A stretch of DNA of 64,000 nucleotides from Candidatus Spongiisociaceae bacterium (GCA_965219685.1 CBDCOH010000002.1:2400001-2464000); one strand, 5' to 3'; shown: positions 3,510 through 51,925, counted from the stretch's first letter. Translations and numbers: made by a program. The notes: a model not told the origin generated them from the sequence alone.

Positions 3510-4754
3510 TCAGAGTGCTGCGGTCAGTCCGCCGGCGGCTGCAGTGAAAGTCACGACCAACCATGGAGGGAGCTTCCAGAACGCGAGCATTAGGAATGCT
3601 ATGAGTGCCAACCCGAAGTCGGCAGGCCCGAGAATTGCGCTCGACCACAGCGGATCGTAGAGAGCCGACAGCAGAATCCCCACCACCACTGCGTTGACAC
3701 CTCGCAGGACTGCCTGTACACGCGGCCGGGAACGCATAGCCCCGAACGTGGGCAGGGTGGCTACCACGATCAGGAAGGACGGCAGGTAGATGGCGGACAA
3801 GGCGAGGGCGGCGCCCGCCACCCCGTTGGGCTCAGGACCCATGGCGAACCCGATATAGGCCGCGAACGTGAAGATCGGCCCGGGTATGGCCTGAGCTGCG
3901 CCGAAGCCGGCGAGGAACGTCTCCTCGTCGATCCAACCGGACTCCACCACCTCTCGCTCGAGCAACGGCAGGACCACCGGAGCGCCCCCGAACACGAGGG
4001 CGCCCGAACCGTAGAAGGCGTCGGCGGTATCGATGGCGTGAGAATCGAGCGCGGCGCGCACCACCGGCAGCGCCACCAGCAGGCCAACGAACAGCGCAAT
4101 GCTCACCACCGCCGCCCCCCGACCGGCGCCCAACTCACGGGAGCGGGCCACCGGCGTCTCCCGGCGCAGTAGGAACCATCCCAGGATCCCGCCGGCGACT
4201 ATGACCACCACGATGGTCGTGCGCGCCGAGGACGGGAACGCAAGGAGAGCAGCGGTGGCGAGGACGACCATCGAACTCCGCGTCTTGTCAGGAGCCAGTT
4301 GGCGCCACAGTTTCCATACGGCCAAAGCCACCACCGGCACCGCCACGACCACCAGCCCATGGATCCATCCCGCGAGCTGATCGGTCAGCCGTGAGGCCGT
4401 CCATGCGAACGCGGTGAGCAACACGGCAGATGGGAGGGCAAAACCGAGCCACGCCGCGAGGCCGCCCAGCATCCCGCGGCGCATGATGCCGATGGCGATG
4501 GCCAACTTGCTGCTTCCCGCTCCCGGGAACACCTGGGAGAGGGCGACCAGGTCCGCAAACGTCTTGGTGTCGAGCCACCCTCGTCGCTGCACGTACTCGT
4601 CCTCGAAGTACGCGAAGTGGGCCAGCGGACCCCCGAAGGCAACGCACCCCAGCCGAAGAGACACCAGAAAGATCCGGATGGCGGACTCCCGCTCCGGGGC
4701 CGGACCTCCCGCTGCGGATGTACCGACCGGTTCGCGGTCTTGCCTACCGGTCAC
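3510..4754 (-). CDS. chrA: Long-chain chromate efflux transporter (CHR family), copy 1
   Basis: AFGGPLAH, ALSQVFPGAGSS, FGGAPVVLPLL, AQAIPGPIF, YLPSFL. Confidence 0.9.
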   Translation of the reverse strand: MTGRQDREPVGTSAAGGPAPERESAIRIFLVSLRLGCVAFGGPLAHFAYFEDEYVQRRGWLDTKTFADLVALSQVFPGAGSSKLAIAIGIMRRGMLGGLAAWLGFALPSAVLLTAFAWTASRLTDQLAGWIHGLVVVAVPVVALAVWKLWRQLAPDKTRSSMVVLATAALLAFPSSARTTIVVVIVAGGILGWFLLRRETPVARSRELGAGRGAAVVSIALFVGLLVALPVVRAALDSHAIDTADAFYGSGALVFGGAPVVLPLLEREVVESGWIDEETFLAGFGAAQAIPGPIFTFAAYIGFAMGPEPNGVAGAALALSAIYLPSFLIVVATLPTFGAMRSRPRVQAVLRGVNAVVVGILLSALYDPLWSSAILGPADFGLALIAFLMLAFWKLPPWLVVTFTAAAGGLTAAL

Positions 4755-4814
4755 AGAGTCCCTCCGGTGAATGGTCAGTGATTCTCGACCGGGACGATAC
4801 CGACCTCGATGGTC

Positions 4815-5203
4815 TCAGCCGGGAGAAGCCACTCTCCCGCGACCCGGCGCGCCTATCACCTCTCCGCGCTCGTAAACCACCCGGCCCCGCAGGATCGTGC
4901 GATCGATGGCCCCGACAACCGGGCGCCCCGCGTCGGGCGTCCAACCGCACTTGCTGTGCACCAGGTCGTCGCTGATGACCTTCGGAACCCGTCCTCGAGG
5001 GACTCGGAGTGCGTCACATCGGCTTCGATACCGGCAGCAATGCCTCCCGAGTTCCGGAGCCGGGCGGCGGCTCGGGCCGCGGCCCCACCGTCGACGTCCA
5101 GGACAGCTACCCGCCCACCTTCCGCGATGATGTGCTCGGCCACGGCCATCCCGATACCGCCGACCGCTCCTGTGACGACGGTCGCCCTCTCCTCGAGCGT
5201 CAC
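4815..5203 (-). pseudogene. Chimeric remnant: SDR N-terminus fused out of frame to a dihydroorotase/allantoinase C-terminus
   Basis: VVTGAVGGIG...VAVLDVD...ADVT (SDR) stops resembling an SDR near 4985; another frame gives SKCGWTP...TILRGRVVYERGEVIGAPGRG*. Confidence 0.75.
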
Positions 5204-5339
5204 GGCAATCCCGCTCCGGATCCGGAAAGGCTGAGGAGGGCGTGCGGCAGAGGCGCATCGTGTGTGGGATGACCTTGGATCGTGGGCAGCAACCGGCCGT
5301 CTCCGGCAGGCATCTGGACCCTGCAACTACAGTCCACAA

Positions 5340-5373
5340 CGATATCGGATCACGATATCGAGTGTCGAGGGCC
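5340..5373. promoter_or_regulatory. CGATATCG-N5 operator array, site 1
   Basis: CGATATCG gatca CGATATCG agtgt CGAGGGCC in the divergent SDR-remnant/MmgE gap, just after a TACAGT -10-like hexamer. Confidence 0.8.
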
Positions 5374-5394: not shown

Positions 5395-6711
5395 ATGGAC
5401 CGCAACCCGCTGGATGTACTCGCCGACCACATACTCGAGCTCAGGTTCGAGGCGATACCCGACCAGGTGATAAGGCAGGCGAAGGCCGTCATACGCCACG
5501 ACCTGGCAGTCGGGATGCTCGGCAGCGGCACCGACGAGGCCCTTAGAGCAGTGGATTTCGCGACTTCGACGGGCAATTCGGGCTCGTCGACCGTAATCGG
5601 GCACCGGATGACACTGGCTCCGATCGACGCGGCGTTCGCCAACGCGGTGATCATGCGCTCGCTCCGGCAGGAGGATTCGATCCTCCCTTCGTTCATCCAC
5701 CCCGGTCCCATGGTCATACCCCCCGCCCTGGCGATCGCCGAAGCACGCGGGCTTGCCGGACACGAGGTGATCACCGCGGTGGTAGCGGCCTACAACGTGC
5801 TCGGAGTGTTGGCCGGATCGGAATGGACGTGGGAGAAGTGCGCCCGCACGCCTTCCCATGTATACGGCGCTTTCGGAGCGGCAGCCGTTTCGGCCCGGCT
5901 CCTGGGTCTGGACCCCGATCAGACGCGAACGGCGCTGGCTTACGCCGGTAACTACGGCGCGATGATCACCCACGGTTTCCACAACCACCAGTACGGCGTC
6001 CTGGCCCGTAACGGTATGACCGCGGCCGGACTCGGGCGAGCTAGGGCCCCTTACAGGGAAGATGCTCTCGAAGGGCCGCACGGCTTCTTCGAAGCCCAGG
6101 TCGGCGCAGTGCGGCCGAGCCTCCACGAGGACCTGCAAGGAGTCGGAAGGCGCTGGGAGATCATGACCGCCGTTCTCAAGCCCTACCCGTGCACGGCGAT
6201 CAACGTGGTACCGCTCACTCTGATTGAAGAGTTGTTGAGACGGGAAGGACTCTCCGCCGACGGGGTTGCCCGGCTGACGGTACGGAGATCGAGAGATTCG
6301 TTCCGCGTTCCCGGGATCAACGACCCTGATCCGCATGCGAAGGAGTTCGGACGGGTCAGTTCGCTGCAGTTCAACCTGGCGGTCATGCTGCTGCGAGGAT
6401 CGGTGACACCGGAGTCTCATAGGGATCCCGACCTCGCCGAACGTGCCGCCGGCCTGGCGGGCATCATCCGGATCGAGCCTTCCGCCTCGACGGACCTACT
6501 CCACCACGAGGTACTCCTGACCGCATCGGACGGACGCCGGTTCCGTGTCTCCGGAGGTGCGGAGGTCCTGGCCGCGCCCCGACCGGTGGCCATCGCGCGG
6601 ATGTATCCCGGGAGCGACTCGACGGCAGCCCGGATCGAACGGATGGTCTCCGAGGTCCATCAACTCGACTCGGCCGACCGCGTAACCGGGTTGATGCGAT
6701 GCGTCGCGTGA
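5395..6711 (+). CDS. MmgE/PrpD family protein (1)
   Basis: IPDQVIRQAK, DAAFANA, IHPGP..IPPALAIAE, LEGPHGFF, KPYPC. Confidence 0.88.
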   Translation: MDRNPLDVLADHILELRFEAIPDQVIRQAKAVIRHDLAVGMLGSGTDEALRAVDFATSTGNSGSSTVIGHRMTLAPIDAAFANAVIMRSLRQEDSILPSFIHPGPMVIPPALAIAEARGLAGHEVITAVVAAYNVLGVLAGSEWTWEKCARTPSHVYGAFGAAAVSARLLGLDPDQTRTALAYAGNYGAMITHGFHNHQYGVLARNGMTAAGLGRARAPYREDALEGPHGFFEAQVGAVRPSLHEDLQGVGRRWEIMTAVLKPYPCTAINVVPLTLIEELLRREGLSADGVARLTVRRSRDSFRVPGINDPDPHAKEFGRVSSLQFNLAVMLLRGSVTPESHRDPDLAERAAGLAGIIRIEPSASTDLLHHEVLLTASDGRRFRVSGGAEVLAAPRPVAIARMYPGSDSTAARIERMVSEVHQLDSADRVTGLMRCVA

Positions 6712-6811
6712 CCACCGGCGCAGCGGGGCCGGGTCGTAACGACCGGTCGGGAGTCACGGCCGCGCTGTTAGCGTGCCCCGAACCCGAACCCCGGCGCGGG
6801 GAGGAGCCGCC

Positions 6812-7180
6812 ATGATGGAAGACCTGATCGCGAATACCTACGACGTGATCGACGCCAACCCGGTCCTCGCGGGCGAGACCTTCCGGGTAACCCACCTTCA
6901 ACGAACCGAGAGATCCACGAGCGCGGTGTGCTCCATCGAGGCGGGCGGGGGCCTACGACCGCACATCCACCACCACCACGACGAGGTCATCGTCTTCCTG
7001 GAAGGCGAAGCCGACTTCCGCCTCGGCGACGAGATACGGCAGGTGAGAGCCGGTGATGTGGCGGTCGTACCGGCCGGAACCGCACACGCCACTATGAACG
7101 CCGCCACCCGTGTGGTCATAGCCGCGGTCTTCGCTCCCAACTTCGATCCCGAGAACGAGGACCGCGAGTACGTCGACTGA
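6812..7180 (+). CDS. Cupin domain protein
   Basis: PHIHHHHDEVIVFLEG and GDVAVVPAGTAH cupin motifs; GGAGGAG RBS. Confidence 0.88.
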   Translation: MMEDLIANTYDVIDANPVLAGETFRVTHLQRTERSTSAVCSIEAGGGLRPHIHHHHDEVIVFLEGEADFRLGDEIRQVRAGDVAVVPAGTAHATMNAATRVVIAAVFAPNFDPENEDREYVD

Positions 7181-7348
7181 CCGTCTGGGTGTCAGGTGAT
7201 TGTACGGATTCCTGACATCTTCGACTGCCGAAGTCGACCGGCATAACGAGCAAGGTGCGGTAGCCGTTTACGGCAACCGGCAACCCGCACCTGACTGCCG
7301 CCGCGGCCGGTTGGGAAGCGAGCCGGTGGGCCACGTAGTGTGGTGCCC

Positions 7349-8554
7349 ATGGCATCGACCGCGCCACCGGATAGGCCGCGCTCCGCCGACGTCTCCCCGG
7401 CAGATCCCGGGTTCCTGGAGCGGATCATCGGTCTGCGGCGAGAATTGCACCGCCATCCGGAACTCTCGGAGCAGGAGGAGCGGACTGCCGGTCTCATCTG
7501 CTCGTTTCTGGAGGAACTCGGAATCCCTTACCGGGCCGGGGTCGGAGGGAACGGTGTGGTGGCGCGTTTGAGCGGCCGCAAGGTCGGGCCCGTGGTGGCC
7601 CTTCGAGCCGATATCGATGCCTTGCCGATACGGGAGGAGACCGGGCTCCCGTTCGCTTCGGCGGTCGAAGGCGTGATGCACGCCTGCGGCCACGACGGCC
7701 ACACCGCCATGCTGATGGGCGCGGCGATTCTGCTCCGCGCAGAGCCTCCCCCTTACCCGGTCCGGCTCCTGTTCCAGCCGGCCGAGGAGCGCGGGAGCGG
7801 GGCGCGGATGATGATCGCGGACGGGGCTATCGACGGGGTATCCGCCGTCTTCGGCGGACACCTGGACATCAACTACCCGGTCGGAACGCTGGTGGTCAGC
7901 GATGGAGCGGTCAACGCAGCGTCCGACTACTTCACGATCCGTATCAAGGGCAGGACGGGACACGCCGCCAGGCCTCACCAAGCGGTGGACGCAGTGGTTG
8001 CCGGGGCGTCGCTGGTGAGCGCACTCCAGACGATCGTCGCTCGAGAGGTAGACCCAGCAGATCCGGCGGTGCTCACGGTGGGAAGTTTCACCGCCGGAAC
8101 CGCCGAGAACGTAATCGCCGGCGCCGCCAGGCTCACTGGGACCATCCGTACCCTCGACCCCGAGGTACGCCGGCATCTCTGTGACTCGGTGGTCCGGATG
8201 GCCACCGCGGTCGCGCAGTTGCATGGCTGCGCGGTGGAACCGGAGGTGCGAGAGGGTAACCCACCAGTCGTCAATGCCCCGGCTATTACGCGGTTGGCCC
8301 GGCAGGCCGCGTCGGCGGTCGTGGAGGACACCGGCTTGCTACAGATGCACACCGTCAACATGGGATCCGAGGACTTCGGGCGATACCTGGAGAGGGTTCC
8401 CGGCTGTTACATCCGGTACGGCGGTCTCACGCCCGGTCATGAACCGTCGCCAGCCCATTCGGGCCGTTTCGACTTCGATGAGCGGGCGCTCGGCATCGGG
8501 GCGCGATGGCTCGACAAGGTCGCACGGGTAGCGGGCGAGGAACTGGCCCGCTAG
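7349..8554 (+). CDS. M20D-family amidohydrolase
   Basis: LHRHPELS, LRADIDALPI, MHACGHDGH, FQPAEE, GSEDF. Confidence 0.93.
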   Translation: MASTAPPDRPRSADVSPADPGFLERIIGLRRELHRHPELSEQEERTAGLICSFLEELGIPYRAGVGGNGVVARLSGRKVGPVVALRADIDALPIREETGLPFASAVEGVMHACGHDGHTAMLMGAAILLRAEPPPYPVRLLFQPAEERGSGARMMIADGAIDGVSAVFGGHLDINYPVGTLVVSDGAVNAASDYFTIRIKGRTGHAARPHQAVDAVVAGASLVSALQTIVAREVDPADPAVLTVGSFTAGTAENVIAGAARLTGTIRTLDPEVRRHLCDSVVRMATAVAQLHGCAVEPEVREGNPPVVNAPAITRLARQAASAVVEDTGLLQMHTVNMGSEDFGRYLERVPGCYIRYGGLTPGHEPSPAHSGRFDFDERALGIGARWLDKVARVAGEELAR

Positions 8555-11706: not shown

Positions 11707-11740
11707 CGATAACGAATCACGATATCGGATGTCGAGACCA
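11707..11740. promoter_or_regulatory. CGATATCG-N5 operator array, site 2
   Basis: CGATAACG aatca CGATATCG gatgt CGAGACCA between divergent pdhA and ferredoxin; TACAGT at 11697. Confidence 0.8.
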
Positions 11741-12601: not shown

Positions 12602-12635
12602 CGGTATCGGGCTACGATATCGCCAATCAAGGTCG
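12602..12635. promoter_or_regulatory. CGATATCG-N5 operator array, site 3
   Basis: CGGTATCG ggcta CGATATCG ccaat CAAGGTCG upstream of the ABC operon. Confidence 0.78.
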
Positions 12636-12664: not shown

Positions 12665-13654
12665 ATGTGGGCTTACATCCTGCGACGAGCAGCCCTCGGC
12701 CTTCTCACGTTGTTCGTCATCTCGATCATCTCCTTCATCATCATCCAGCTACCGCCGGGCGATTTCGTGTCAACTGCACTCGCGGAGTTGGCTGAGAGCG
12801 GAACCGAGACCGCAGACGAGTTCGCGGCGCAACTCCGCGCGGAGTACGGGCTGGATCGCCCGCTCGTGGTCCAGTACGGCATCTGGATGAGCCGGGTGCT
12901 GAGGGGCAACCTCGGTACGTCGTTCTTCTACCAGAAACCCGTGGTGGAGGTGATCGGGGATCGGTTGCCGCTCAGCATGCTGGTGTCGATCTCGGCGCTC
13001 GTCTTCACCCTGCTGATCGCGATCCCCATCGGTATCTACTCCGCGGTCCGCCAGTACTCGGTCGGCGACCACATAGCCACGTTCTTCGGCTTCCTCGGCC
13101 TGGCCACGCCCAACTTCCTTCTCGCCCTGGTGCTGTTGTACGTGGGTTTCCTATGGCTCGACGTCTCCTTGGCAGGTCTGTTCTCGGCCGAATACGCGAC
13201 CGCGCCATGGAGCCTCGCCAAGATCGGAGACCTCCTGGTTCACCTTCCGATTCCGGCCATCGTGCTGGGGACCGCGGGAGCAGCGCAATTGATCCGGATC
13301 ACCCGGGCCAACCTGCTGGACGAGAAGCGCCAGCCCTACGTGACGACCGCCCGGGCGAAGGGCCTGTCGAACCGCCGGGCCATAGGCAAGTATCCGGTCA
13401 GGGTGACGATGAATCCGGTCGCGAGCTCGGTGGGCCTGCTGTTTCCCAGCATCGTCTCGGGTGCGGTGATCGTGTCGGTGGTGCTGAGCCTCCCCACGAT
13501 GGGTCCGGTCCTGCTGAGTTCTTTGCTCAGCCAGGACATGTACCTCGCCGGGGCCATCATCCTCCTGCTGGGCGCGTTCACGGTACTCGGGGTGTTCCTC
13601 TCCGACCTTGTCCTGATGTGGCTCGATCCCCGCATCCGCCATGGCCACTACTGA
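12665..13654 (+). CDS. Peptide/nickel ABC transporter permease (DppB-like)
   Basis: YILRR, LPPGD, YGLDRPL..QY, YVTTARAKGL, LDPRIR. Confidence 0.93.
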   Translation: MWAYILRRAALGLLTLFVISIISFIIIQLPPGDFVSTALAELAESGTETADEFAAQLRAEYGLDRPLVVQYGIWMSRVLRGNLGTSFFYQKPVVEVIGDRLPLSMLVSISALVFTLLIAIPIGIYSAVRQYSVGDHIATFFGFLGLATPNFLLALVLLYVGFLWLDVSLAGLFSAEYATAPWSLAKIGDLLVHLPIPAIVLGTAGAAQLIRITRANLLDEKRQPYVTTARAKGLSNRRAIGKYPVRVTMNPVASSVGLLFPSIVSGAVIVSVVLSLPTMGPVLLSSLLSQDMYLAGAIILLLGAFTVLGVFLSDLVLMWLDPRIRHGHY

Positions 13655-17000: not shown

Positions 17001-17034
17001 GGATATCGTGAGTCGTTATCGGGATGTGATACCA
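17001..17034. promoter_or_regulatory. CGATATCG-N5 operator array, site 4
   Basis: GGATATCG tgagt CGTTATCG ggatg TGATACCA upstream of the substrate-binding protein gene. Confidence 0.78.
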
Positions 17035-19725: not shown

Positions 19726-19726
19726 G

Positions 19727-26440: not shown

Positions 26441-26444
26441 CCCG

Positions 26445-39528: not shown

Positions 39529-39546
39529 CGGTCCTCCTTCCGTGCT

Positions 39547-41271: not shown

Positions 41272-41305
41272 TGAACTCGCGAACCGATATCGGAGGACGT
41301 TACCG
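41272..41305. promoter_or_regulatory. CGATATCG-N5 operator array, site 10
   Basis: TGAACTCG cgaac CGATATCG gagga CGTTACCG in a divergent gap. Confidence 0.75.
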
Positions 41306-42562: not shown

Positions 42563-43747
42563 TCAGGGAAGGAGCGCGTCGGCGGCCGCTTCGATACGTT
42601 CCATCGCCTCGTCGAGGCGGGCATCGGGAATGGTGAGGGAGAACCTGACGTAACCCTCGCCGTAGCGGCCGTAGCCGATTCCCGGGATCGCCACCACCGC
42701 GGTGTGCTCGAGTAACCGGGTGAAGAAGTCCATGCTGCCGATCCCTGTGGGGAGGGGCGCCCACACGTAGAAGGTTCCGGGAGGCGGATCCACCTCCAGG
42801 CCGATCCGGCGCAGGGTGGCCACCACCCTGTCGCGTCTCCGCCGGTAGATAGTCATCTTGGCCCGTAACACGGAGTCGGGAGTCCCGAGGGCGACGATAG
42901 AAGCCTGCTGGACGGCGCCGAACACGCCGGCGTCCGTGTTCAGCTTCATGCTCCGGATCATGCCGACGATCTCGGGATTGCCGACCGCCATCCCGCTGCG
43001 CCACCCGGTCATGTTGTAGGACTTGGACAGGCTGTTGAACTCGACGGCGACGTCCTTGGCCCCGTCGACGGACAGGACACTGGGCGCCGGAACGCTTCCG
43101 AACGTGATATCTGCGTAGGGGTTGTCGCTCACCAGGATGGTGCCCGTCCGGCGGGCGAACTCCACCGCTTTCGCGAAGAACTCGAGCGAGGCGACCGCCG
43201 CAGTCGGATTGTTCGGATAGGAGATCCAGATGGCCCTTGCGCTGGTCGCGAGGTCCCGGGGAATCGAGTCGAAATCGATGAGGAATCCGTTCTCGGCCAG
43301 GAGCGGCACCTTTCGCACCTCGGCCCCCGCCAGGATGGCGGCCGCCTCGTAGGCGGGGAAGGCAGGATCGGGAACAAGGACCACATCCCCCGGGTTGAGG
43401 GCACCCATACAGAAGTGGAGGTTTGCCTCCTTGCTGCCCATCAAAGGCAGCACATCGGTTTCGGGATCGACGGCGACATCGAACCGGCGCTCGTACCAGG
43501 CGGAGATCGCGGAGCGGAACTCCGGCAACCCGCGGGCCAGGCCATGGGGATACTGGTGGTTCACCGGATCCTGGGCCGCTTCCAGGAGAGCCTCCACCAC
43601 ATGCGGCGGGGTCGGGAGGTCGGGGTCGCCCTTCCCCAGGTCTATCACATCCCGACCCGCCTGGAGGGCCTCCGACACCCGGCGATGTATCTCCACGTAG
43701 ACATAAGGCGGTAGGGATTCGAGGCGCTGAGATCTGGCCAGGTCCAT
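42563..43747 (-). CDS. Class I aminotransferase, LL-diaminopimelate aminotransferase-like
   Basis: LPPYVY, IDLGKGDPD.PTP, GSKE, YPNNPT, SLSKSYNMTGWR. Confidence 0.85.
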   Translation of the reverse strand: MDLARSQRLESLPPYVYVEIHRRVSEALQAGRDVIDLGKGDPDLPTPPHVVEALLEAAQDPVNHQYPHGLARGLPEFRSAISAWYERRFDVAVDPETDVLPLMGSKEANLHFCMGALNPGDVVLVPDPAFPAYEAAAILAGAEVRKVPLLAENGFLIDFDSIPRDLATSARAIWISYPNNPTAAVASLEFFAKAVEFARRTGTILVSDNPYADITFGSVPAPSVLSVDGAKDVAVEFNSLSKSYNMTGWRSGMAVGNPEIVGMIRSMKLNTDAGVFGAVQQASIVALGTPDSVLRAKMTIYRRRRDRVVATLRRIGLEVDPPPGTFYVWAPLPTGIGSMDFFTRLLEHTAVVAIPGIGYGRYGEGYVRFSLTIPDARLDEAMERIEAAADALLP

Positions 43748-43782
43748 CGGCAGGTCCACGGAGTCGGCGGTCCCGGTGAGGC

Positions 43783-43816
43783 TAGCATCGAGACCCGATA
43801 TCGGTACACGAAACCG
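43783..43816. promoter_or_regulatory. CGATATCG-N5 operator array, site 11
   Basis: TAGCATCG agacc CGATATCG gtaca CGAAACCG in a divergent gap. Confidence 0.75.
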
Positions 43817-43830: not shown

Positions 43831-45225
43831 ATGGGGACGGGTGGGGTAGGCCATGGACAGCTGGAGCGAAGCGGCCGCGACTTCGCCCCGGTGCCTTACC
43901 CGACCCAGACCGAACGGCTCGCCGCACATGTGGTGGGGCTCCGTTACGACGACATCCCGCGACCCGCCGTGGACAAGATGAAGGACCACATCGTCCATCA
44001 CCTCGGACTGGCCCTGCGGGGTCTCGGCACCGGAGAAGGCCGCCAAGCCATCCGGATCGCCGAGTCCTTCCGCCATGGGGGATCTGCCACCATCGTCGGC
44101 AGGCGAACCCGGACGGCTCCCCTGGAGGCCACCTTCGCCAACACGACCCTCATGCGTTCCGACTTCCTCGACGATGTGCTCTTTCCCGCCGGTGTCCACG
44201 CCGCTCTCGTGACCCTCCCACCTGCGCTGGCCGTCGCAGAGGAACGCCATCGGTCCGGAAAGGAGTTGCTCACCGCCCTGGTCGCCGCCTACGACGTGAT
44301 CGGCAAGCTGGGAAACGCGGCCGGAATACGCTCGGCGAGGGCGCCGAGAAGACCGACAATTCCCTTCGGACCCTTCGGCGGCGCGGCGGCGGTCGCCCGC
44401 CTGCTCGGCTTGTCGAAACACCCGACCGCCCACGCCCTGGGCTACGCGGCGCACTCGGGCATGGGCCTCAGCGAGGGTGATTTCGTCACTCACTACTACA
44501 GCCTGGTGGCCAGGAACGGCCTGATGGCAGCGCTGGCGGCCGACCATGGGGGGCAAGCGGCCCTGGCGGTGATGGAGGGTCGGTTCGGCTTCTGGAACAC
44601 ATTCTTCACGGGAGTTCCCCCGACCCTGGACGACTCGCTCGCCACCTTGGGTAAGGAGTTCGAGATCATGAACGCCACGACCAAGCGTTACCCGGGTACG
44701 GGGCTGAATATCGTCCCGATCGAACTCACCACCCACTTGGTGGAGGACCATTCCCTGACCGTTGCGAATACCCGCTCGGTGACCGTGTTCCTGCCCGCCG
44801 AGCGGGAGAGCTTCGTCACGGGCCACATGCAGCCCCCCTTCGAAAGCGAAGCGGCGGCCCGCAGCTCGCTGGTTCTGGCCATCGCCACCATCCTCGCGAC
44901 CGGCCGGATCGACCCGGCGCTTGTCAAGCAGTACGCCCGTCCGGATCTGGTGGAACTCTGCAGCCGGATCCGCGTGGTCCTGGAGGAGGGCCATCCCATC
45001 CGCTACGCCCGGATCGAGATCGCCACCCGCGACGGACGCTCGCTAGCCGCCCAGGGACATGACCACTCCTTCGATCCGGCGGAGTGGCTCCGCTGGATCT
45101 CCATCGGCGGAACCGATGTCCTCGGACGCGATGCGCTCGCCGCGCTGGTGGAGACAATGGATCGCCTCGAAGACCTTGACGACGTAGCCGACTTGACAAC
45201 CTTGCTCCGACCTCCCGATAGTTGA
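43831..45225 (+). CDS. MmgE/PrpD family protein (4)
   Basis: MKDHIVHHLGL, EATFAN, DFLDD..PAGVH, MEGRFGF, KRYPG. Confidence 0.88.
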   Translation: MGTGGVGHGQLERSGRDFAPVPYPTQTERLAAHVVGLRYDDIPRPAVDKMKDHIVHHLGLALRGLGTGEGRQAIRIAESFRHGGSATIVGRRTRTAPLEATFANTTLMRSDFLDDVLFPAGVHAALVTLPPALAVAEERHRSGKELLTALVAAYDVIGKLGNAAGIRSARAPRRPTIPFGPFGGAAAVARLLGLSKHPTAHALGYAAHSGMGLSEGDFVTHYYSLVARNGLMAALAADHGGQAALAVMEGRFGFWNTFFTGVPPTLDDSLATLGKEFEIMNATTKRYPGTGLNIVPIELTTHLVEDHSLTVANTRSVTVFLPAERESFVTGHMQPPFESEAAARSSLVLAIATILATGRIDPALVKQYARPDLVELCSRIRVVLEEGHPIRYARIEIATRDGRSLAAQGHDHSFDPAEWLRWISIGGTDVLGRDALAALVETMDRLEDLDDVADLTTLLRPPDS

Positions 45226-45361
45226 TAGATGATAGTTGATAATTGATAGTTTCCGTTAGATCGGATCATTCACCATCCTCAATAGCAAGGCACTATCCAT
45301 CGATGAGCCACCAGCCATTAGCAAAACTCACAACTACTAACTAATAACTACCAACTATTAA
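45217..45361. repeat. Two facing heptamer arrays between convergent genes
   Basis: + strand GATAGTT GATAGAT GATAGTT GATAATT GATAGTT (45217-45251); CTCACAA CTACTAA CTAATAA CTACCAA CTATTAA (45327-45361). Confidence 0.8.
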
Positions 45362-46082
45362 GTAGCTCCCGTCCGAACAGTGACTGATGGGTCGACGTCA
45401 CCAGGGAGTAGAGATCGAAGATGGGGAGGCCGGTCGCGCGCCGCATCGCGTTGCCCCAAGGAACGAAGTTCGTGCACTCGAGGACGATCGCGCCCACATC
45501 AGGATGCTCCTCGACCTGGCGGCGAGCCAGCGCCACCAGCTCTGCCTCCAGCACGGCGGTGTCGGCGACAACCGTCTGGTCGATGTACACCTGTGGGAAG
45601 ACGGCATCCCTCGGCATGGATGTGACGACCGTGTCGACTTCCCCCGGTTGCCAGCCCATGCCGACGAAGTGGCGGTCGGTGAGGTGCGGGCGTTCGGTCA
45701 GGATCCCGACCTTCCGTCCCGGCCCGACGAGCCGGCCCGCCAACGGGACCTGGAGCAGGGCGGAGGTGAGCATCGGGACGCCGACGCTCGCCTGCATCGC
45801 CCGGTGGAAGACCGATAGGAAACCACAGCTGGTGGTGATCGCCCTCACTCCCTTCGCCTCCAACTCTCTCGCGCCTTCGATGAAGGGGGCGAGCAGCGTC
45901 GGGTCGGGCTCCGAACCCATGATCCTGCTCGTGTCGGCCCCCTTCACGACCTTGTAGAGAACCGGGAACGGCCACGTCAGGGCGTTTCCCACGTCGCCGG
46001 GTGGTCTGGGACAGGTCGTGTCGAGCATGAGGATCCCGATGTCGTGGCCGTAAACGGTACGGCCGCCTTTCACTATCGCCAT
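45348..46082 (-). CDS. Asp/Glu racemase-family protein (2)
   Basis: GGRTVYG, GILMLDT, TSCGF, ECTNF. Confidence 0.85.
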   Translation of the reverse strand: MAIVKGGRTVYGHDIGILMLDTTCPRPPGDVGNALTWPFPVLYKVVKGADTSRIMGSEPDPTLLAPFIEGARELEAKGVRAITTSCGFLSVFHRAMQASVGVPMLTSALLQVPLAGRLVGPGRKVGILTERPHLTDRHFVGMGWQPGEVDTVVTSMPRDAVFPQVYIDQTVVADTAVLEAELVALARRQVEEHPDVGAIVLECTNFVPWGNAMRRATGLPIFDLYSLVTSTHQSLFGRELLNSW

Positions 46083-46139: not shown

Positions 46140-46173
46140 TGATTACGAACCCCGATATCATGATCCGAGTTCG
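46140..46173. promoter_or_regulatory. CGATATCG-N5 operator array, site 12
   Basis: TGATTACG aaccc CGATATCA tgatc CGAGTTCG in a divergent gap. Confidence 0.72.
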
Positions 46174-46198
46174 AGTTTCGTCACCGGAACGGAGCGCG

Positions 46199-47476
46199 AT
46201 GAGGCTCACATACGAAGACCTCGAGATGCTGGACGGCAAGCAGGGAGAGGCCCGGCGCCGGGCGATGGAGGGACTCGTCCAGTTGGGCGCGGCCTTCGGG
46301 GCGGAAGACCTGGTGTCGATCGGGTACGCCCACGTGCATCCGGGCATGGCCATGTACGCCCAGGATGTGGAGTTGCTCGAGGAATTGGTGGATCTCGGCG
46401 GGCAGGTTGTGGTCCCGACCACGGCCAACGTCACCAACGTCGACACGGAGAACTGGAGGCAGACGGGAGCCCCCGAATCGCTGGCCCGGCTCCACATGCG
46501 GGGGGTACGAGCCCACAAGGCTCTCGGCTGCGTGAGCGCCATGACCTGTACACCCTATTGGGCCGGGCATTGGCCGACGTGGAACATGCACATGACCTCG
46601 ATCGAGTCCGGGGTCACGGTGTTCTGCAACTCGGTGCTCGGCGCCCGCTCGAACCGGGACGGTTTCTTCAGCGTCTACGCGGCATTGACCGGCCGCTATC
46701 CCCGCTTCGGCTACCACCTCGACGAGAACCGGGCGGGCACGCATCTGGTTACGGTGGAGACCCCCCTGGACAACACGACCGACTTCAGTTGCCTGGGCTA
46801 CCACCTGGGACCGCTGGTCGGGACCGGCGTACCGGTCTTCACCGGCTTCTCCAGGCGTCCCTCACTCGACGAACTGGACGCTTTGGGAGCGGGTCTCGCC
46901 ACAACCGGAGGCGTATCCATGTTCATCGTCCCCGGCATCACACCCCCGTACCAGTCGAAGAGCCAGGCCATGGCGGGCAATCGGGCTCCGGTGGAGATCC
47001 GCGTAGGGCCTCCCGACATCGACCGGGTATACGACTCCTTCTCCTCGTCTCCAGCCGGATCCCGGATCGACTTCGTCCATATCGGATGTCCCCATGCCTC
47101 CTTCCAGGAGATGAAGGAGTACACTGCGCTGCTCTCCGGACGGACCGTCCACCCCGACGTGGAACTGTGGATCACCACCAGCGGCGCCGTCAAGGCCCTG
47201 TGCGCACGGGAAGGATTGATCGACACGCTCACCGATGCAGGCGCCAAGGTCATAACCGACACCTGCCCGATGTCATGCCATTTCGCGCGGACAACCTCGC
47301 CGGATCCCGGGATCGTGCTTCCCGAGCCCCACATCCGCCGGATGGTCGTGGACTCCGCCAAACAGGCCAAGTACAGCCGCGACATGATCATGTGCGAGAC
47401 CCTCCTGGCAACGACCACCTCCGCAGTCGCGACCGCAATCTCCGGGCGGCTCGTGACAGGGAGGGCCCACCCGTGA
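46199..47476 (+). CDS. Aconitase X catalytic (large) subunit
   Basis: MLDGKQGEA, MTCTPY, ESG...NSVLGARSNR, IGCPHAS, DTCP, DSAKQAKY. Confidence 0.9.
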   Translation: MRLTYEDLEMLDGKQGEARRRAMEGLVQLGAAFGAEDLVSIGYAHVHPGMAMYAQDVELLEELVDLGGQVVVPTTANVTNVDTENWRQTGAPESLARLHMRGVRAHKALGCVSAMTCTPYWAGHWPTWNMHMTSIESGVTVFCNSVLGARSNRDGFFSVYAALTGRYPRFGYHLDENRAGTHLVTVETPLDNTTDFSCLGYHLGPLVGTGVPVFTGFSRRPSLDELDALGAGLATTGGVSMFIVPGITPPYQSKSQAMAGNRAPVEIRVGPPDIDRVYDSFSSSPAGSRIDFVHIGCPHASFQEMKEYTALLSGRTVHPDVELWITTSGAVKALCAREGLIDTLTDAGAKVITDTCPMSCHFARTTSPDPGIVLPEPHIRRMVVDSAKQAKYSRDMIMCETLLATTTSAVATAISGRLVTGRAHP

Positions 47477-47910
47477 ACGGTCGGTACCGGATCGCGGCGC
47501 GTGGCATCGTCCCCGGCAAGGCGTCGGGCCCCGCCCTCGTCTCGACCGAAGGCCTCTCCTTCCTGGGGGATCTCGACATCAGGAGCGGCCGGGTCGTGAA
47601 CAGGACGCACGAGATGCGGGGCCGCAGCGTGACCGGGACGGTTCTGGTGCTCCCGCACAGCGTGGGTTCGGCGGGGGCATGGCGTTTCCTCTACCAGTTG
47701 CAGGTACACGGCACGCACCCGGTGGCAATCGTCCAGAACGCTCTGCCCGACTCCTCGCTCGTCCAGGGCGCCATCCTCGGCGGTATACCGGTGGTATGCG
47801 AGCCCGAAGTGGACGTGACCACCGCGATCCGTTCGGGGGACACAGTCGAGGTAGACGGCGGGACGGGCGTCGTGAGCATATGGCCGGGACTATCGGGGGT
47901 ACCGGCATGA
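47473..47910 (+). CDS. Aconitase X swivel (small, DUF126) subunit
   Basis: GKASGPALVS..GLSFLG...GSAG...GDTVEVDG..G; GTGA overlap with the large subunit. Confidence 0.88.
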   Translation: MNGRYRIAARGIVPGKASGPALVSTEGLSFLGDLDIRSGRVVNRTHEMRGRSVTGTVLVLPHSVGSAGAWRFLYQLQVHGTHPVAIVQNALPDSSLVQGAILGGIPVVCEPEVDVTTAIRSGDTVEVDGGTGVVSIWPGLSGVPA

Positions 47911-48635
47911 TCGACGGAGGACGAACGGTCTACGGCTTCGAACTCGGAGTCCTGATGCTGGACACCGTATTCCCACGGCTGGTCGGGGATGTGGGGAATG
48001 CCGGCACCTGGCCCTTTCCGGTCCGGTACCGGGTCGTACGGGGGGCGACCTCCCGCCGGGTCGTCCAGGAACCGGACGACGCGCTACTCGGCCTGTTCAT
48101 AGACGGCGCCAGGGATCTCGAGCGGGACGGAGTGCGGATGATCACCACCAGTTGCGGATTCCTCGCCCTTTACCAGAAGGAACTAGCGGCAGCCGTCTCC
48201 GTCCCGTTCCTCTCCTCTTCCCTGCTCCAGGTACCCGATGCCGCCCGGCTCATCGGGCCCGATCGCAAGGTCGGCATCCTGACCATGAGCCGGGACGACC
48301 TCACCGAGGCACACTATGCGGCGCTCGGGTGGTCATCGACCGACCTACCGGTGATCGTGTCGTCCTCCGCCCCCGGGGCACTGTTCTGGGAGACCTATCT
48401 GGTGGGCCGCCCGAGTGTCGATCCCGCGGCCCTCGAGGGGGAACTGGTCGACCTCTGTGGCGACCTCGTGGCCGGCAATCCCGAGGTGGGGGCTCTGGTT
48501 CTGGAGTGCACCAACTTCGGCCCGTTCGCTCCGGCTCTCCGCAAGGAGTTCGGTCTTCCGGTCTATGACCTGGCAACGCTCGTACTCCAGACCCGCATGG
48601 CGATATCGGGCGCCGGATTCGAGGCCATCCGATGA
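47907..48635 (+). CDS. Asp/Glu racemase-family protein (3)
   Basis: GGRTVYG, GVLMLDTVFPR, TSCGF, ECTNF; ATGA overlap. Confidence 0.87.
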   Translation: MIDGGRTVYGFELGVLMLDTVFPRLVGDVGNAGTWPFPVRYRVVRGATSRRVVQEPDDALLGLFIDGARDLERDGVRMITTSCGFLALYQKELAAAVSVPFLSSSLLQVPDAARLIGPDRKVGILTMSRDDLTEAHYAALGWSSTDLPVIVSSSAPGALFWETYLVGRPSVDPAALEGELVDLCGDLVAGNPEVGALVLECTNFGPFAPALRKEFGLPVYDLATLVLQTRMAISGAGFEAIR

Positions 48636-49705: not shown

Positions 49706-49781
49706 GACCGGCGCTGGTGGGCCCTTGGCACGGCACCCTTTGTCCACCATCCTTGCACGCCGGTGCCGGCCGGAGGCCGGT

Positions 49782-50837
49782 ATGAGCCCGCCGCCGGTCC
49801 GGATTCCGGCTGAACAGCTCCACGGCCTGGGCCTGGCACTCCTCGAGGCCATCGGTATGCCGCCCGCCGATGCCGCCATCGCGGCCGGGGCGATGGTATG
49901 GAACGAGTTGCGGGGGGCGGCCGGGCACGGCCTGGGGCGGATCCTCCAGATTCAGGAAAGGTCGGGAGCGGGCGGTCTGAATCTCGAAGTGGATTGGACG
50001 CCCATTCGCGAGTCACCTGCCACGGCGCTGATCGACGCGCAGAACGGATGGGGGGTGGTCGCGGGCACGAGGGCCATGCGGATCGCAATCGACAAGGCTC
50101 GGCTGAACGGGGTCGGGACCGTGGTGGTGCGCAACAGCGACGTCACATCCGCCATGGGCTACTACCCCTACGTGGCGACGGAGGCCGAGATGGTCGGGCT
50201 CGCCGTCACCAACTCGGTGCCGCTGATGCCGCCCTGGGGTGGTAGCGAAGTCCTGCTGGGAAACCAGGCCTTCGCGATCGGGGTCCCGGCAAGGATCCAC
50301 CCGCCTCTGATCTTCGACTCGTCGACTAGCGCCTACAACATGGGAAAGATGCGCCAAGCGGCTGTCTCGGGCGAGAGGCTGCCTCCCGGCGTAGCCCTCG
50401 ACGAAACCGGAGAGGAGACGGACGATGCAGAAGCCGCGCTCGCCGCGTTGCGCCTCCTGCCGATGGGCGGTCACCGCGGGGGAGGTCTGGCGATCATGTG
50501 GGAGGTCTTCACCGGCATCCTCGCCGGTGGGAGGTCCACAACCGAGGTCGTGGGCATGCAGCACCTGGACAGGACCCAGGGTCTGAGCCTCTACGTGCAG
50601 GCTCTCGATCCGCGCAGCTTCCTGCCATACGAGGAGTTCCTGTCCAGAGTTGACCGGTTGATCGGCCAGATCCACTCCAACCCGCCCCGAGAGGGCTTCG
50701 GCCAGGTGCGGGTACCGGGCGAGCGCAAGGCCGGGTTCGAAGCCGAGTACCGGACGCGGGGCGTGCCGTTCCCCACCGAGAACCTCGAACGCCTCCGGGC
50801 ACTGTGCCTGGATCGCGGGGTGGTATGGCCGTGGTGA
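49782..50837 (+). CDS. Ldh_2 family oxidoreductase (2)
   Basis: ELRG..GHG, LLGNQAFAIG, GGHRGGGL, VRVPGE. Confidence 0.88.
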   Translation: MSPPPVRIPAEQLHGLGLALLEAIGMPPADAAIAAGAMVWNELRGAAGHGLGRILQIQERSGAGGLNLEVDWTPIRESPATALIDAQNGWGVVAGTRAMRIAIDKARLNGVGTVVVRNSDVTSAMGYYPYVATEAEMVGLAVTNSVPLMPPWGGSEVLLGNQAFAIGVPARIHPPLIFDSSTSAYNMGKMRQAAVSGERLPPGVALDETGEETDDAEAALAALRLLPMGGHRGGGLAIMWEVFTGILAGGRSTTEVVGMQHLDRTQGLSLYVQALDPRSFLPYEEFLSRVDRLIGQIHSNPPREGFGQVRVPGERKAGFEAEYRTRGVPFPTENLERLRALCLDRGVVWPW

Positions 50838-51925
50838 GGTCGCAGCCGGGCAACCGGCCACCGGACGACCAGACTCTTCCGACCGTCGACGCCGGCGACC
50901 TGCGGCGGTTCGCGGCCGCGGTCCTGCAGGCCCAGGGAGTGGCGCCTGCGGACGCGGCCCTCGCTGCCGATGCCATGGTCTGGGCCGACCTCAGGGGAAG
51001 GTACGCTCACGGAACGAGCAGCAAGCTTCCCCAATGTGTATCCCGGATCCGGGCCGGTGGGACATCCACATCTGGCGAGTTGCCCTTCGTCTCGGAGACT
51101 GCTGCGACCTTCGTGCTCGACGGGCGCCACTCTTGGGGTCAGATCGCAGCTTCGAAGGCGATGATGGCGGCCGTGGAGAAGGCTCGGTCCGTTGGCGTGT
51201 CCGTCGGCGTCGTGCGCGACTGCAGTTCCGCAGCCGCGATGGGTTACTACCCCCTGCTGGCAGTGGCCGAGGGCATGATCGGCCTCGCCGTCACCAACGG
51301 ACCTCCCCTCATCGCTCCTTCCGGGGGTTCCACCAGACTGTTGGGAAACCAGGCCCACGCGATAGGCTGCCCGGCCAACCGCCACCATCCGATCGTGTTC
51401 GACGCGGCGACCACCGCCATGTCCACCTCCGAGATGGATCTCGTCCACGAGCGCGGCGAGCTACTCCCGGAAGGAGTCCTGTACACCGCCGACGGAACAC
51501 CGACCAGAGATCCCTCGCTCTGGGTTGACGGCCTCCTGGCCCCGGCGGGAGGTCACCGTGGCTACGGGTTGTCGCTGATGTTCGAGATTCTCACGGGTGT
51601 GCTGGCGGGAGGCGCGAGGCTCGCTCCTGATGTAGGGCATCCGTTCGACAGCCGGGAACCCCAGGGCGTATCCCTGTTCGTGGTGGCGATCGACCCCGAG
51701 CACTCGATCGGATACGGAGAGTTGACGCGGCGGGTCGACTCGCTGATCGACCGGCTGCACGCCTCTGGGACCGCCCCCGGCATCGAGAGGATCTACGTAC
51801 CCGGTGAACGGAGCTTCATCCTGGCCGAGAGGCGGGAACGGGACGGAATTCCGATGCCGGTGGAGCGGCTGGAGGCCCTCCGCCGGATCGGTTCGGAGTC
51901 GGGCCTGACGCTTGCTAGTTGGTAG
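50825..51925 (+). CDS. Ldh_2 family oxidoreductase (3)
   Basis: ADLRGRYAHG, LLGNQAHAIG, GGHRGYGL, IYVPGE. Confidence 0.88.
   Translation: MAVVRSQPGNRPPDDQTLPTVDAGDLRRFAAAVLQAQGVAPADAALAADAMVWADLRGRYAHGTSSKLPQCVSRIRAGGTSTSGELPFVSETAATFVLDGRHSWGQIAASKAMMAAVEKARSVGVSVGVVRDCSSAAAMGYYPLLAVAEGMIGLAVTNGPPLIAPSGGSTRLLGNQAHAIGCPANRHHPIVFDAATTAMSTSEMDLVHERGELLPEGVLYTADGTPTRDPSLWVDGLLAPAGGHRGYGLSLMFEILTGVLAGGARLAPDVGHPFDSREPQGVSLFVVAIDPEHSIGYGELTRRVDSLIDRLHASGTAPGIERIYVPGERSFILAERRERDGIPMPVERLEALRRIGSESGLTLASW

Follow-up and report, generated by a model that had tools for sequence, protein, structure and literature searches.

A shared 21-bp operator marks a candidate catabolic regulon for imported C4-dicarboxylate-bearing amino or imino acids in a Candidatus Spongiisociaceae bacterium

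Several characterised bacterial systems resemble parts of the gene island described here, which spans positions 3510-51925 of a 64,000-nucleotide stretch of a Candidatus Spongiisociaceae genome (GCA_965219685.1, CBDCOH010000002.1:2400001-2464000; hereafter the window) and is made up of about 46 adjacent genes in about 22 transcription units linked by a common operator. One such system is the ethylenediaminetetraacetate (EDTA) operon of Chelativorans sp. BNC1, comprising EppABCD, EmoA/EmoB and IdaA; IdaA is a DAO-type and EmoA a luciferase-like monooxygenase (LLM)-type enzyme, like enzymes of the island. In both systems a cluster C (NikA/DppA/OppA-like) binding-protein importer lies beside degrading enzymes, and the EDTA operon is not described with MmgE, CCG, FhuF-like, CHR, racemase or Ldh_2 genes such as those of the island, a comparison made by description only (PMC7312458). 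The binding protein of the island has no detectable similarity to EppA while belonging by family to the same structural class, its LLM enzyme is of the F420 class, and its regulation differs.

Degradation of iminodisuccinate (IDS) proceeds through an IDS epimerase and a C-N lyase. Pfam searches of the 58 window proteins found no lyase of the aspartase/fumarase type, and cleavage in the island would be oxidative. The epimerase belongs to the MmgE/PrpD family, and its substrate is an imino-diacid built on a C4 dicarboxylate backbone (PMC12290011); MmgE4 of the island is no closer to it (60 bits; 2hp0/2hp3) than to cis-aconitate decarboxylase (76 bits). In the OdhABC and Oox-Nox systems, an opine-oxidising flavoprotein depends on [2Fe-2S] partners encoded next to it, and flavin opine dehydrogenases carry flavin adenine dinucleotide (FAD), flavin mononucleotide and [2Fe-2S] (PMC4575208). 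The putative partners in the island are single-CCG proteins and a FhuF-like protein, not OdhA/OdhC, and its DAO protein is DadA-like. The island also encodes an opine dehydrogenase related to the enzyme of PDB entry 1bg6; its gene shares an operon with a MOSC-like open reading frame (ORF) and a two-domain MmgE/PrpD fusion.

GlcF, GlpC, LutA and HdrB share the CCG motif with the Fe-S proteins of the island, which differ in having one intact CCG, no N-terminal 2x[4Fe-4S] domain and an extra invariant C-x-C near the C-terminus, and which are often encoded in pairs. FhuF siderophore operons, such as that of a Nostoc sp. NIES-3756 plasmid (L024), encode an ABC importer together with a FhuF-type protein, as the island does, but the island differs by its family-5 binding protein, by having no TonB receptor or synthetase and by its large catabolic gene set. 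The staphylopine (Cnt) system likewise has an Opp-type importer; the permeases and ATPases of the island are moderate matches to the CntC/D/F models, far below the cutoffs, its binding protein scores 36.8 bits against CntA (cutoff 800), and no CntL-like gene is present among the 58 proteins. CntM belongs to a different dehydrogenase family from the opine dehydrogenase of the island. We found no published description of this gene combination or of the operator in the open-access literature.

Genes in the window, which has a G+C content of 66%, were called by a heuristic based on G+C at third codon positions (GC3), with approximate start codons. All 58 ORFs were scanned against Pfam, and 44 ORFs of the island also against NCBIfam. 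An earlier note on this DNA had proposed a co-regulated system that imports, de-metalates and catabolises a metal chelate. Every gene family named in it was found in the island by Pfam and/or NCBIfam, while its gene list had left out a PadR-family regulator, an F420-class LLM oxidoreductase, a DapD-like succinyltransferase, a DapL-like aminotransferase, a cupin, the AcnX swivel subunit, a weak MOSC-like ORF and two small membrane ORFs.

The genes of the island form one regulon marked by a shared operator, as supported by motif searches of the whole window. Between 5.3 and 48.6 kb, 12-13 promoter regions contain a 21-bp operator of the form CGATATCG-N5-CGATATCG, which is absent from the flanks; CGATATCG-bearing blocks in several promoter regions also emerged from a repeat search (families D8 and D10). 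The pattern ACGATATCG, with at most one mismatch, matched 48 times versus 13.1 +/- 5.1 times in shuffled sequences, and 48 matches were reached by 0 of 100 shuffles. A position weight matrix (PWM) was trained on ten sites, with leave-one-out scores of 16-30 bits. Scanning with it returned 16 distinct sites of at least 10 bits, all within 5339-48600, where shuffled sequences gave 1.26 per 64 kb on average; the non-training sites comprise three in further promoter regions and three weak intragenic ones at chance level. The shared, enriched and island-confined operator supports the co-regulation claimed in the earlier note.

The operator recurs in other genomes. An alignment of the CCG family (17 members) led to 20 loci (L001-L020) from species-representative genomes, all of them metagenome-assembled. 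Seven loci come from Acidimicrobiia or unclassified bacteria, are collinear with the window, and have a best CCG match 75-92% identical to the window paralog; the other 13 collapse to 12 distinct distant loci from other Actinomycetota and from Chloroflexota. The close match to the seven collinear loci makes Acidimicrobiia the probable class of origin of the window. With the window-trained PWM, at least one operator site of at least 14 bits was found in 19 of the 20 CCG-anchored loci, compared with 0-0.15 raw matches per locus in shuffles. The 12 distant loci (195 kb) hold 36 sites with the consensus nCGATATCGGnnnaCGATATCGn, and the five sites of L003 and the nine of L016 are all intergenic.

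From left to right in the window, site 1 (5340..5360, CGATATCG-gatca-CGATATCG, 33.9 bits) separates CHR1 from MmgE1 and is overlapped by a sigma-70-like -35/-10 pair of the leftward gene. Site 2 (11707..11727, 30.8 bits) lies between the E1alpha and ferredoxin genes, site 3 (12602..12622, 30.8 bits) upstream of the permease operon, and site 4 (17001..17021, 26.1 bits), which is overlapped by TTGACA-18-TATCGT, upstream of the binding-protein gene. Site 5 (24156..24176, 33.4 bits), between the divergent MmgE fusion and MmgE3 genes, is kept in L001 and L002, and site 6 (28927..28947, 31.6 bits), at the centre of the 82-bp divergent region between DAO and CCG1, is kept in L001, L002, L007 and L008. 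Site 7 (33683..33703, 30.4 bits), a candidate autoregulation site between CHR2 and padR, is kept in L001, L006-L008 and L011. Upstream of h137 stands site 8 (35140..35160, 34.1 bits), followed between the MFS and CCG3 genes by the weaker, non-training site 9 (36922..36942, 14.3 bits), which is stronger in L001 and L005-L008. Site 10 (41285..41305, 29.5 bits) lies between the genes for a thiamine pyrophosphate (TPP) enzyme and an acyl-CoA dehydrogenase (ACAD), with TTGACA-17-TAACGT for the leftward operon, site 11 (43796..43816, 29.1 bits) between the aminotransferase gene and MmgE4, and the non-training site 12 (46140..46160, - strand, 19.1 bits) between racemase 2 and AcnX. A weak and doubtful site 13 (48601..48621, 10.2 bits) is found upstream of the Ldh_2 genes. 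Nine divergent promoter regions contain one operator site each.

At 5 of the 13 sites, the operator contains a TAnnnT hexamer that lies 16-18 nt from a sigma-70-like -35 hexamer, with promoter matches overall at chance frequency, and a third conserved block, TGTCGAG, looks like the leftward promoter's -35 box. The presence of -10-like hexamers inside the operator fits repression by promoter occlusion. We assign the operator to a PadR-family protein (33753..34130, + strand; PF03551 67.1 bits, cutoff 27) because this is the only regulator that recurs across loci; an operator site lies upstream of padR in the window, L001, L003, L006-L008, L011 and L020. The protein misses the Rv3488-family equivalog (95.1 bits, cutoff 140). 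The island's PadR protein is most likely the predicted operator-binding repressor. It would bind CGATATCG-N5-CGATATCG as a dimer and occlude the -10-like hexamers. Since there is one site per promoter region, often between divergent operons and overlapping -10-like hexamers, the approximately 22 units are expected to switch together. A GGAGG-like ribosome-binding site for the DAO start codon at 28918 (about 28924-28928, - strand) abuts or overlaps the operator half-site 28927-28934.

In our best reading, the island is a substrate-inducible catabolic regulon and not primarily a metal system. More precisely, we propose, with a probability of roughly 0.45, a PadR-type-controlled regulon for the catabolism of imported amino or imino acids that bear a C4 dicarboxylate, such as opine- or iminodisuccinate-like compounds, with an Fe-S-linked flavoprotein dehydrogenase. 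Uptake of a carboxylate-rich compound or of a family of stereoisomers would be carried out by a Tat-exported solute-binding lipoprotein of family 5 (cluster C) together with an Opp-type importer. The 749-aa binding protein (17103..19352, +; PF00496 158.7 bits) has an RRRF twin-arginine signal and a Thr/Ala-rich linker. The Opp/Dpp/Nik-type ABC importer (12665..16907, +; BPD_transp_1, OppC_N, ABC_tran and oligo_HPY) consists of permeases at 12665-13654 and 13641-14819 and ATPases at about 14809-15858 and 15855-16907, none of which reaches an NCBIfam equivalog cutoff. The best PDB relatives of the binding protein are 5ipw of T. maritima and SPH1118, whose positively charged cleft accommodates its ligand, unsaturated trigalacturonate. 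Its 501 plasmid homologs are about 33% identical and mostly rhizobial, and in two contexts they lie beside sugar or sugar-acid genes.

After uptake, five MmgE/PrpD domains and three two-Cys racemases may act as a stereochemical funnel that interconverts C2-substituted stereoisomers of the succinate or aspartate type. The five domains lie in four ORFs, all above the PF03972 cutoff: MmgE1 (5395..6711, +; 136.6 bits), a two-domain fusion (21420 to about 24113, -; two matched stretches) that is likewise fused in L001, MmgE3 (24238-25584, +), which shares the operon 24238..27597 with racemase 1 and a split CHR pair, and MmgE4 (43831..45225, +; 164.9 bits), the type kept in distant loci, with homologs in L004, L012 and L014. 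Against the PrpD equivalog NF042438 (cutoff 950) the paralogs score at most 45.8 bits, and MmgE3 gives no match. All characterised MmgE/PrpD enzymes use a C4 1,4-dicarboxylate backbone, and two of four are stereo-isomerases, one of them the IDS epimerase (PMC12290011). Together with the PDB matches, these substrates fit the amino/imino polycarboxylate chemistry suggested in the earlier note. The racemases are all of the PRK07475 type with two conserved Cys each: racemase 1 (25709-26440, +; 256 bits, cutoff 231), racemase 2 (45348..46082, -) and racemase 3 (47907-48635, +), the last in the operon 46160..48635 with AcnX.

Cleavage of the C-N bond would be the task of the NAD-dependent opine dehydrogenase and the DadA-like flavoprotein. 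The predicted opine dehydrogenase (Octopine_DH; 20359-21429, -) scores 138.8 bits against PF02317 (cutoff 30) and 30.7 against NAD_Gly3P_dh_N, and is encoded in the operon 19540..24113 with a 61-aa membrane ORF (19540-19725, -), the weak MOSC-like ORF (19727-20362, -; E 0.0033) and the MmgE fusion. It aligns over its full length (residues 3-355) to 1bg6, N-(1-D-carboxyethyl)-L-norvaline dehydrogenase, at 6e-65, and His202, Arg292 and Asp297 of 1bg6, which we take to be the catalytic residues, are aligned to identical residues. Family and alignment agree with the earlier assignment of this gene, its activity being a prediction. The DAO gene (27650..28918, -; PF01266 214.5 bits; NF001933 205, below the cutoff of 383) encodes a DadA-like FAD amine/D-amino-acid dehydrogenase, and a stop codon upstream of it in L001 confirms its start. 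DAO and CCG1 are divergent neighbours with an operator between them, both in the window and in four close relatives, an arrangement that resembles the GlpA-GlpC logic.

The imines and 2-oxoacids formed in this way could be processed by three Ldh_2 enzymes, AcnX, a DapD-like/aminotransferase/M20 route, the TPP enzyme, a pyruvate dehydrogenase (PDH)-like complex and ACAD. Three tandem Ldh_2 dehydrogenases (48632-49705, 49725-50837 and 50834-51925, +) score 312-315 bits each against PF02615 and reach no equivalog cutoff. AcnX consists of a large subunit (46160-47476, +; PF04412 370.9 bits) and a swivel subunit (47473-47910, +; PF01989 72.7 bits); it is equally near the solved DUF521 entry 7cnr and 7d2r, and misses the cis-3-hydroxy-L-proline dehydratase model NF051439 (266, cutoff 700). 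A pure hydroxyproline pathway, which AcnX and Ldh_2 would fit, was set aside as a side possibility only, as no equivalog cutoff is reached and no epimerase of the proline-racemase type was found by Pfam. To the left lie a small cupin (6773..7180, +; PF07883 47.7 bits), an M20 amidohydrolase (7340..8554, +; PF01546/PF07687; TIGR01891 369.7, cutoff 153.75) and, on the - strand, the 2-oxoacid dehydrogenase subunits E2 (8559-9671), E1beta (9673-10647) and E1alpha (10644-11684; TIGR03181 422.4 bits, cutoff 411.35), identified by Pfam and without an E3. The TPP enzyme (39547-41256, -) shares the operon 38704..41256 with the DapD-like N-succinyltransferase (38704-39528, -; NF008808 303.3, cutoff 204), and a run of TPP enzyme, CoA-transferase, DapD and racemase genes is also present in L012.

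ACAD (41372..42556, +) matches four ACAD Pfam domains and reaches no equivalog cutoff. It has AGG in place of the catalytic Glu of the medium-chain acyl-CoA dehydrogenase-type YEG motif and keeps the Glu in SIERL, presumably the catalytic position of the isovaleryl-CoA and long-chain acyl-CoA dehydrogenase types (IVD/LCAD). A reading of the island as an organosulfonate or disulfide pathway, with CHR as a sulfite/sulfate exporter, was rejected as unsupported. The best match of ACAD is 3-sulfinopropanoyl-CoA desulfinase (336.7, cutoff 600), and the Glu retained in SIERL is that of the IVD/LCAD-type position. The Ldh_2 proteins score 172-200 bits against sulfolactate dehydrogenase (cutoff 500), the CuyB racemase match amounts to 25.8 bits, and the Xsc match of the TPP enzyme is far below that to benzoylformate decarboxylase.

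A class I/II, DapL-like aminotransferase (42563..43759, -; PF00155 209 bits; NF006756 508.4, cutoff 507) and the DapD-like protein, which is above its equivalog cutoff, also bear on another explanation, namely that the island salvages cell-wall peptides or free D- and diamino acids (D-Ala, D-Glu, meso-diaminopimelate) through an Opp/MppA-like importer, with the racemases, DAO, DapD/aminotransferase/M20 and decarboxylases processing them. The family-5 importer, the M20 hydrolase, three Asp/Glu-type racemases and the DadA-like DAO would all suit such a role, as would the DapB, dihydrodipicolinate synthase (DHDPS), ornithine/diaminopimelate (Orn/DAP) decarboxylase and class IV aminotransferase genes that adjoin CCG homologs elsewhere. 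We nevertheless consider salvage improbable: the island contains no muropeptide amidase or carboxypeptidase, the best relatives of the binding protein are not OppA or MppA, and the five MmgE/PrpD domains, opine dehydrogenase, AcnX, CHR and FhuF-like protein would be left without a role.

In the proposed catabolic regulon, three CHR systems, an MFS transporter and h137 would move some anion or product. CHR1 (3510..4754, -; PF02417 249 bits; TIGR00937 303.6) and CHR2 (32407..33654, -; TIGR00937 307.8; cutoff 171.7 for both) are two-domain members of the chromate-ion-transporter family, and the split pair (26445-27044 and 26950-27597, +) is above cutoff by Pfam only. Pfam found no ChrB-like partner among the 58 window proteins. 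In L004 a CHR gene shares an operon with MmgE and CCG, and in L003, L010 and L012 CHR adjoins the importer; we therefore count it among the core genes. To our knowledge, CHR proteins are known for oxyanions and not for metal cations. The MFS transporter (35613..36854, -; PF07690 106 bits) is Bcr/CflA-like, with a TIGR00710 score of 166 below the cutoff of 200.9. The hydrophobic 137-aa protein h137 (35203..35616, +), likely a membrane protein, has a conserved HWLH..W.G motif and no Pfam match; it is kept in L004, L010 and L012 and has 9 close homologs only. Between padR and h137 lies the gene for the F420-class LLM oxidoreductase (34194-35132, +; TIGR03564 270.2, cutoff 234.25).

The combination of exporters, an importer and a FhuF-like reductase, as in siderophore loci, and the presence of four candidate imine-reducing enzymes are also what one would expect if the island made an opine-type metallophore, with the opine dehydrogenase or Ldh_2 and the diaminopimelate-like enzymes building it, MFS and CHR exporting it, and the ABC importer and FhuF recovering the metal. 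This is highly improbable in our view, given that the PDH-like complex, ACAD, TPP decarboxylase and DAO are of catabolic types, that no nicotianamine-synthase-like, nonribosomal peptide synthetase (NRPS) or NRPS-independent siderophore synthetase gene is present among the 58 proteins, and that there is no metal regulator, while the conserved core lacks the candidate synthases.

For the catabolic regulon we propose that electrons from the DadA-like flavoprotein pass to the single-CCG proteins, the FhuF-like 2Fe-2S protein and ferredoxin, with IscA serving the Fe-S load. The single-CCG proteins CCG1 (29001..30134, +) and CCG3 (36980..38077, +), both matching PF02754, belong to clade I, and CCG2 (30152-31366, -), encoded in the operon 30152..33654 with the FhuF-like protein and CHR2, to group II. 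In 17 sequences the motif Cx31CCGx35CxxC (C48, C80-C81-G82, C117 and C120) and the C-terminal CxC are invariant. There is one intact CCG motif instead of two, and beyond it two near-invariant Cys, C226 and C272, which we infer to be a remnant of the second. No Fer4 match to an N-terminal 2x[4Fe-4S] ferredoxin domain was found in the three window proteins; the domain occurs in more distant relatives.

The CCG family is rare. A word-indexed search of 5.8 billion proteins gave 63 matches among 8000 candidates scored, and HMMER, run over all 1.84 billion representatives, returned 111 sequences at E <= 1e-30, rising to 485 at <= 1e-10 and to 2012 at <= 1e-3; the 111 already include more distant GlcF/GlpC-like relatives. 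The profile matches HdrB weakly (1.6e-4) and, over most of its length, GlcF/GlpC-like proteins of 415-450 aa that combine one or two CCG domains with a 2x[4Fe-4S] domain at the N-terminus; these are Fe-S subunits of flavoprotein dehydrogenases. The tree has four groups. Group II members are accompanied by a clade I gene in the window and L004/L020 and by a clade III gene in L014 and L016, which suggests a two-protein CCG unit. Clade IV comprises the members from L018 and L019, loci with one weak operator site or none, and XRE helix-turn-helix fusions. The CCG1 homolog P0002 falls in small CCG clusters of 52-69 members, from which no functional lead came, and the single plasmid relative of CCG1 is a 23%-identical Ilyobacter protein in an unrelated context. 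In 9 of 51 long representatives an XRE helix-turn-helix is fused N-terminally to a CCG of the sister clade (L015:6061-7617, P0061, P0068, P0070, P0072, P0074-P0078), so that some transcription factors may use a CCG-like domain to sense redox state or a ligand.

The FhuF-like 2Fe-2S protein (31427-32407, -) scores 38 bits against PF06276 (cutoff 25.2), 53.8 against TIGR03951 (cutoff 63.85) and 12 against the FhuF_C model PF11575 (cutoff 20.5). Of the Cys in its CC-x12-C-x2-C motif, three are invariant across all 9 homologs and the fourth is kept by 8 of them; the C-terminal 2Fe-2S motif of canonical FhuF is C-C-x10-C-x2-C. Its sole plasmid relative is a 'ferric iron reductase' (31% identity) in a Nostoc siderophore ABC/TonB/NRPS locus. 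Ferredoxin (11797-12045, +; Fer4_15 30.9 bits) and an IscA-type Fe-S assembly protein (12082-12435, +; TIGR00049 60.1, cutoff 58.8) are encoded upstream of the importer.

The FhuF kinship keeps alive a rival version in which the importer takes up a metal-chelator complex (an aminopolycarboxylate, an opine-type or a polycarboxylate metallophore), CCG proteins and ferredoxin supply the FhuF-like protein, which reduces and frees the metal, the ligand is epimerised, cleaved and burnt, and CHR, MFS and h137 dispose of the ion or of a fragment. We regard it as possible though unlikely. The FhuF domain above the Pfam cutoff, the conserved Cys motif and the Nostoc relative speak for it, as does the position of the FhuF-like gene, which heads the importer operon in L014 and is divergent from the importer in L012, and ferredoxin and IscA stand under the same operator. 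The MmgE/PrpD family includes the IDS epimerase (PMC12290011), and import of EDTA by a cluster C binding protein whose operon is shared with degrading enzymes provides a precedent (PMC7312458). The EppA paper states, however, that free EDTA and not its metal complexes is transported.

The regulators and the binding protein also argue against metal-chelate uptake. Pfam detected no Fur, DtxR, Zur, ArsR, MerR or CsoR-type regulator among the 58 proteins, and a search with an IdeR consensus found no IdeR-like box at up to 5 mismatches and 9 matches at up to 7, versus 18 in shuffles. The binding protein is far below the models for CntA (cutoff given above) and NikA (34.1, cutoff 393), EppA (6WM6/6WM7) is not among its 27 PDB matches at E <= 1e-3, its nearest characterised relative binds trigalacturonate, and its plasmid homologs occur in sugar-acid contexts. 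The set of 58 proteins has no nicotianamine-synthase-like member, and the FhuF-like protein stays below the TIGR03951 cutoff. With no metal regulator and no NikA-, CntA- or EppA-like binding protein, the metal part of the earlier note (a metal complex as cargo, de-metalation by FhuF and export of a toxic ion by CHR) stands as possible but unlikely. We likewise hold it doubtful that this is the first dedicated system for pirating and destroying natural aminopolycarboxylate or opine-type metal chelators, conserved across Actinomycetota and Chloroflexota under one 21-bp operator, with a family-5 importer for the ferric or other metal chelate, a FhuF-like reductase that frees the metal and is supplied by a novel pair of single-CCG Fe-S proteins, ligand cleavage by MmgE/PrpD epimerases and a flavoprotein, and a CHR role other than chromate resistance.

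Gene content in other genomes separates a conserved core from the remainder of the island. By tblastn with at least 50% coverage, ABC permeases and ATPases were found in 6 of the 12 distant loci, the binding protein and CHR in 4 each, and FhuF-like, h137, PadR, MmgE/PrpD, DAO, Ldh_2 and TPP enzyme genes in 3 each, followed by racemase (2/12) and DapD (1/12); Pfam additionally placed DAO-family genes in L015, L016 and L017. None of the 12 gave a match in this search to the genes for the cupin, the aminotransferase, AcnX, the opine dehydrogenase, M20, E1/E2, ferredoxin or IscA. The most compact unit is L014, with DAO followed divergently by the FhuF-like gene, permeases, ATPases, binding protein, two CCG genes and MmgE. 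The earlier note had said that its idea would fall if homologs did not co-occur elsewhere; they do co-occur, but outside Acidimicrobiia only the core is kept. The ancestral core may have consisted of importer, CCG, MmgE, DAO, FhuF-like and CHR genes, to which the island of Acidimicrobiia would have added the rest under the same operator. Neighbours of distant CCG homologs are mostly amino-acid genes (class IV aminotransferases, racemases, DapB, DHDPS, Orn/DAP decarboxylases, arginases, 2,4-diaminopentanoate dehydrogenase, RidA and amidases).

This conservation of the core alone, with much of the gene list at 0 of 12 in distant loci, could also mean that the island has no single substrate and is an accretion of small pathways (for D-amino acids, diaminopimelate-like compounds, hydroxy- and imino acids, and opines) under a regulator of wider amino- and organic-acid scavenging. 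Motif-bearing loci do differ widely in their genes, L016 having nine sites and no ABC importer and L017 arginases, and DapD occurs among close relatives only in the window and L001. The paralogs in the island are also old and divergent, not recent duplicates (identities of 27-40% for MmgE, 50-55% for racemases, 35-45% for CCG and 39-44% for Ldh_2), CHR1 and CHR2 alone being close (72%). Two points count against accretion, which we judge quite unlikely. Sites were seen beside CCG homologs alone, though the loci were picked by CCG, and a single importer with repeated sets (3 CCG, 3 racemases, 3 Ldh_2, 3 CHR and 5 MmgE) looks like variations on one chemistry.

Several findings nevertheless weigh against our proposal of a catabolic regulon for C4-dicarboxylate-bearing amino or imino acids. 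Not one of the 12 distant loci yielded opine dehydrogenase, AcnX, M20, PDH, ferredoxin or IscA genes, which makes a large part of the proposed pathway lineage-specific, and six motif-bearing loci have no PadR within +/-10 kb. The nearest relatives of the binding protein bind an acidic oligosaccharide or sit in sugar-acid, not opine, clusters; the three CHR systems are without a role in the catabolic model; and the relationship of the FhuF-like protein to a siderophore-operon reductase, together with its place in the importer operon of L014, fits ferric-chelate release better than a mere electron carrier.

If the proposal is true, it provides a testable regulon of about 46 genes with a defined operator, from lineages for which metagenomes are the sole source, gives the rare single-CCG Fe-S family a function and a context, and places CHR transporters in a non-chromate setting. 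It would also supply candidate enzymes for stereoisomer-rich imino and amino polycarboxylates, a class that includes the biodegradable chelators IDS and ethylenediaminedisuccinate (EDDS). Were the metal-chelate version true, the island would show how bacteria strip and consume such chelators.

Some details of the related loci stand apart from these questions. In two distant loci, L003 (2955-5354) and L016 (4302-6698), the operator accompanies the gene for an 800-aa molybdopterin oxidoreductase whose N-terminus bears a 4Fe-4S domain; the window has only the weak MOSC-like ORF (19727-20362). In L006 the DAO, LLM and MFS homologs are each in two pieces (about 2075-3285, 8428-9320 and 10047-11199); the DAO stretch, the sole one translated, has in-frame stops, and the splits are either pseudogenes or assembly indel errors. 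The DapD-like gene and a short ORF at 38106-38408 are, among the close relatives, confined to the window and L001, and in L006-L008 the TPP gene directly follows CCG3. The short ORF has a weak retropepsin-like match (27 bits, cutoff 57), and a good sigma-70-like promoter match lies at 38464-38493.

The flanks of the island consist of housekeeping genes, among them an extracytoplasmic function (ECF) sigma factor, tRNA-Thr, a K+ channel, holB, topA and Mrp antiporter subunits. The only RNA element detected in the window, tRNA-Thr(CGT) at 1528-1601 (-), lies outside the island, about 2 kb from its left edge. The longest possible ORF of the ECF sigma factor (842-1564) would run into this tRNA gene with its 5' end, and the sigma factor gene must therefore begin further downstream. 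On the other side, a 391-aa ORF (59403-60578, -) with coding-like composition and no Pfam match adjoins the Mrp antiporter genes. Within the island, AT-rich runs of AACTA/TAGTT-like pentamers (repeat families D11 and D19) fill 3' gaps between convergent operons at 19488-19534 (+), 27595-27637 (reverse), 45240-45282 (reverse) and 45325-45357 (+); these runs may terminate transcription in both directions or represent a small repeat element. The region 45230-45360 folds into a long imperfect hairpin (z = -2.15).

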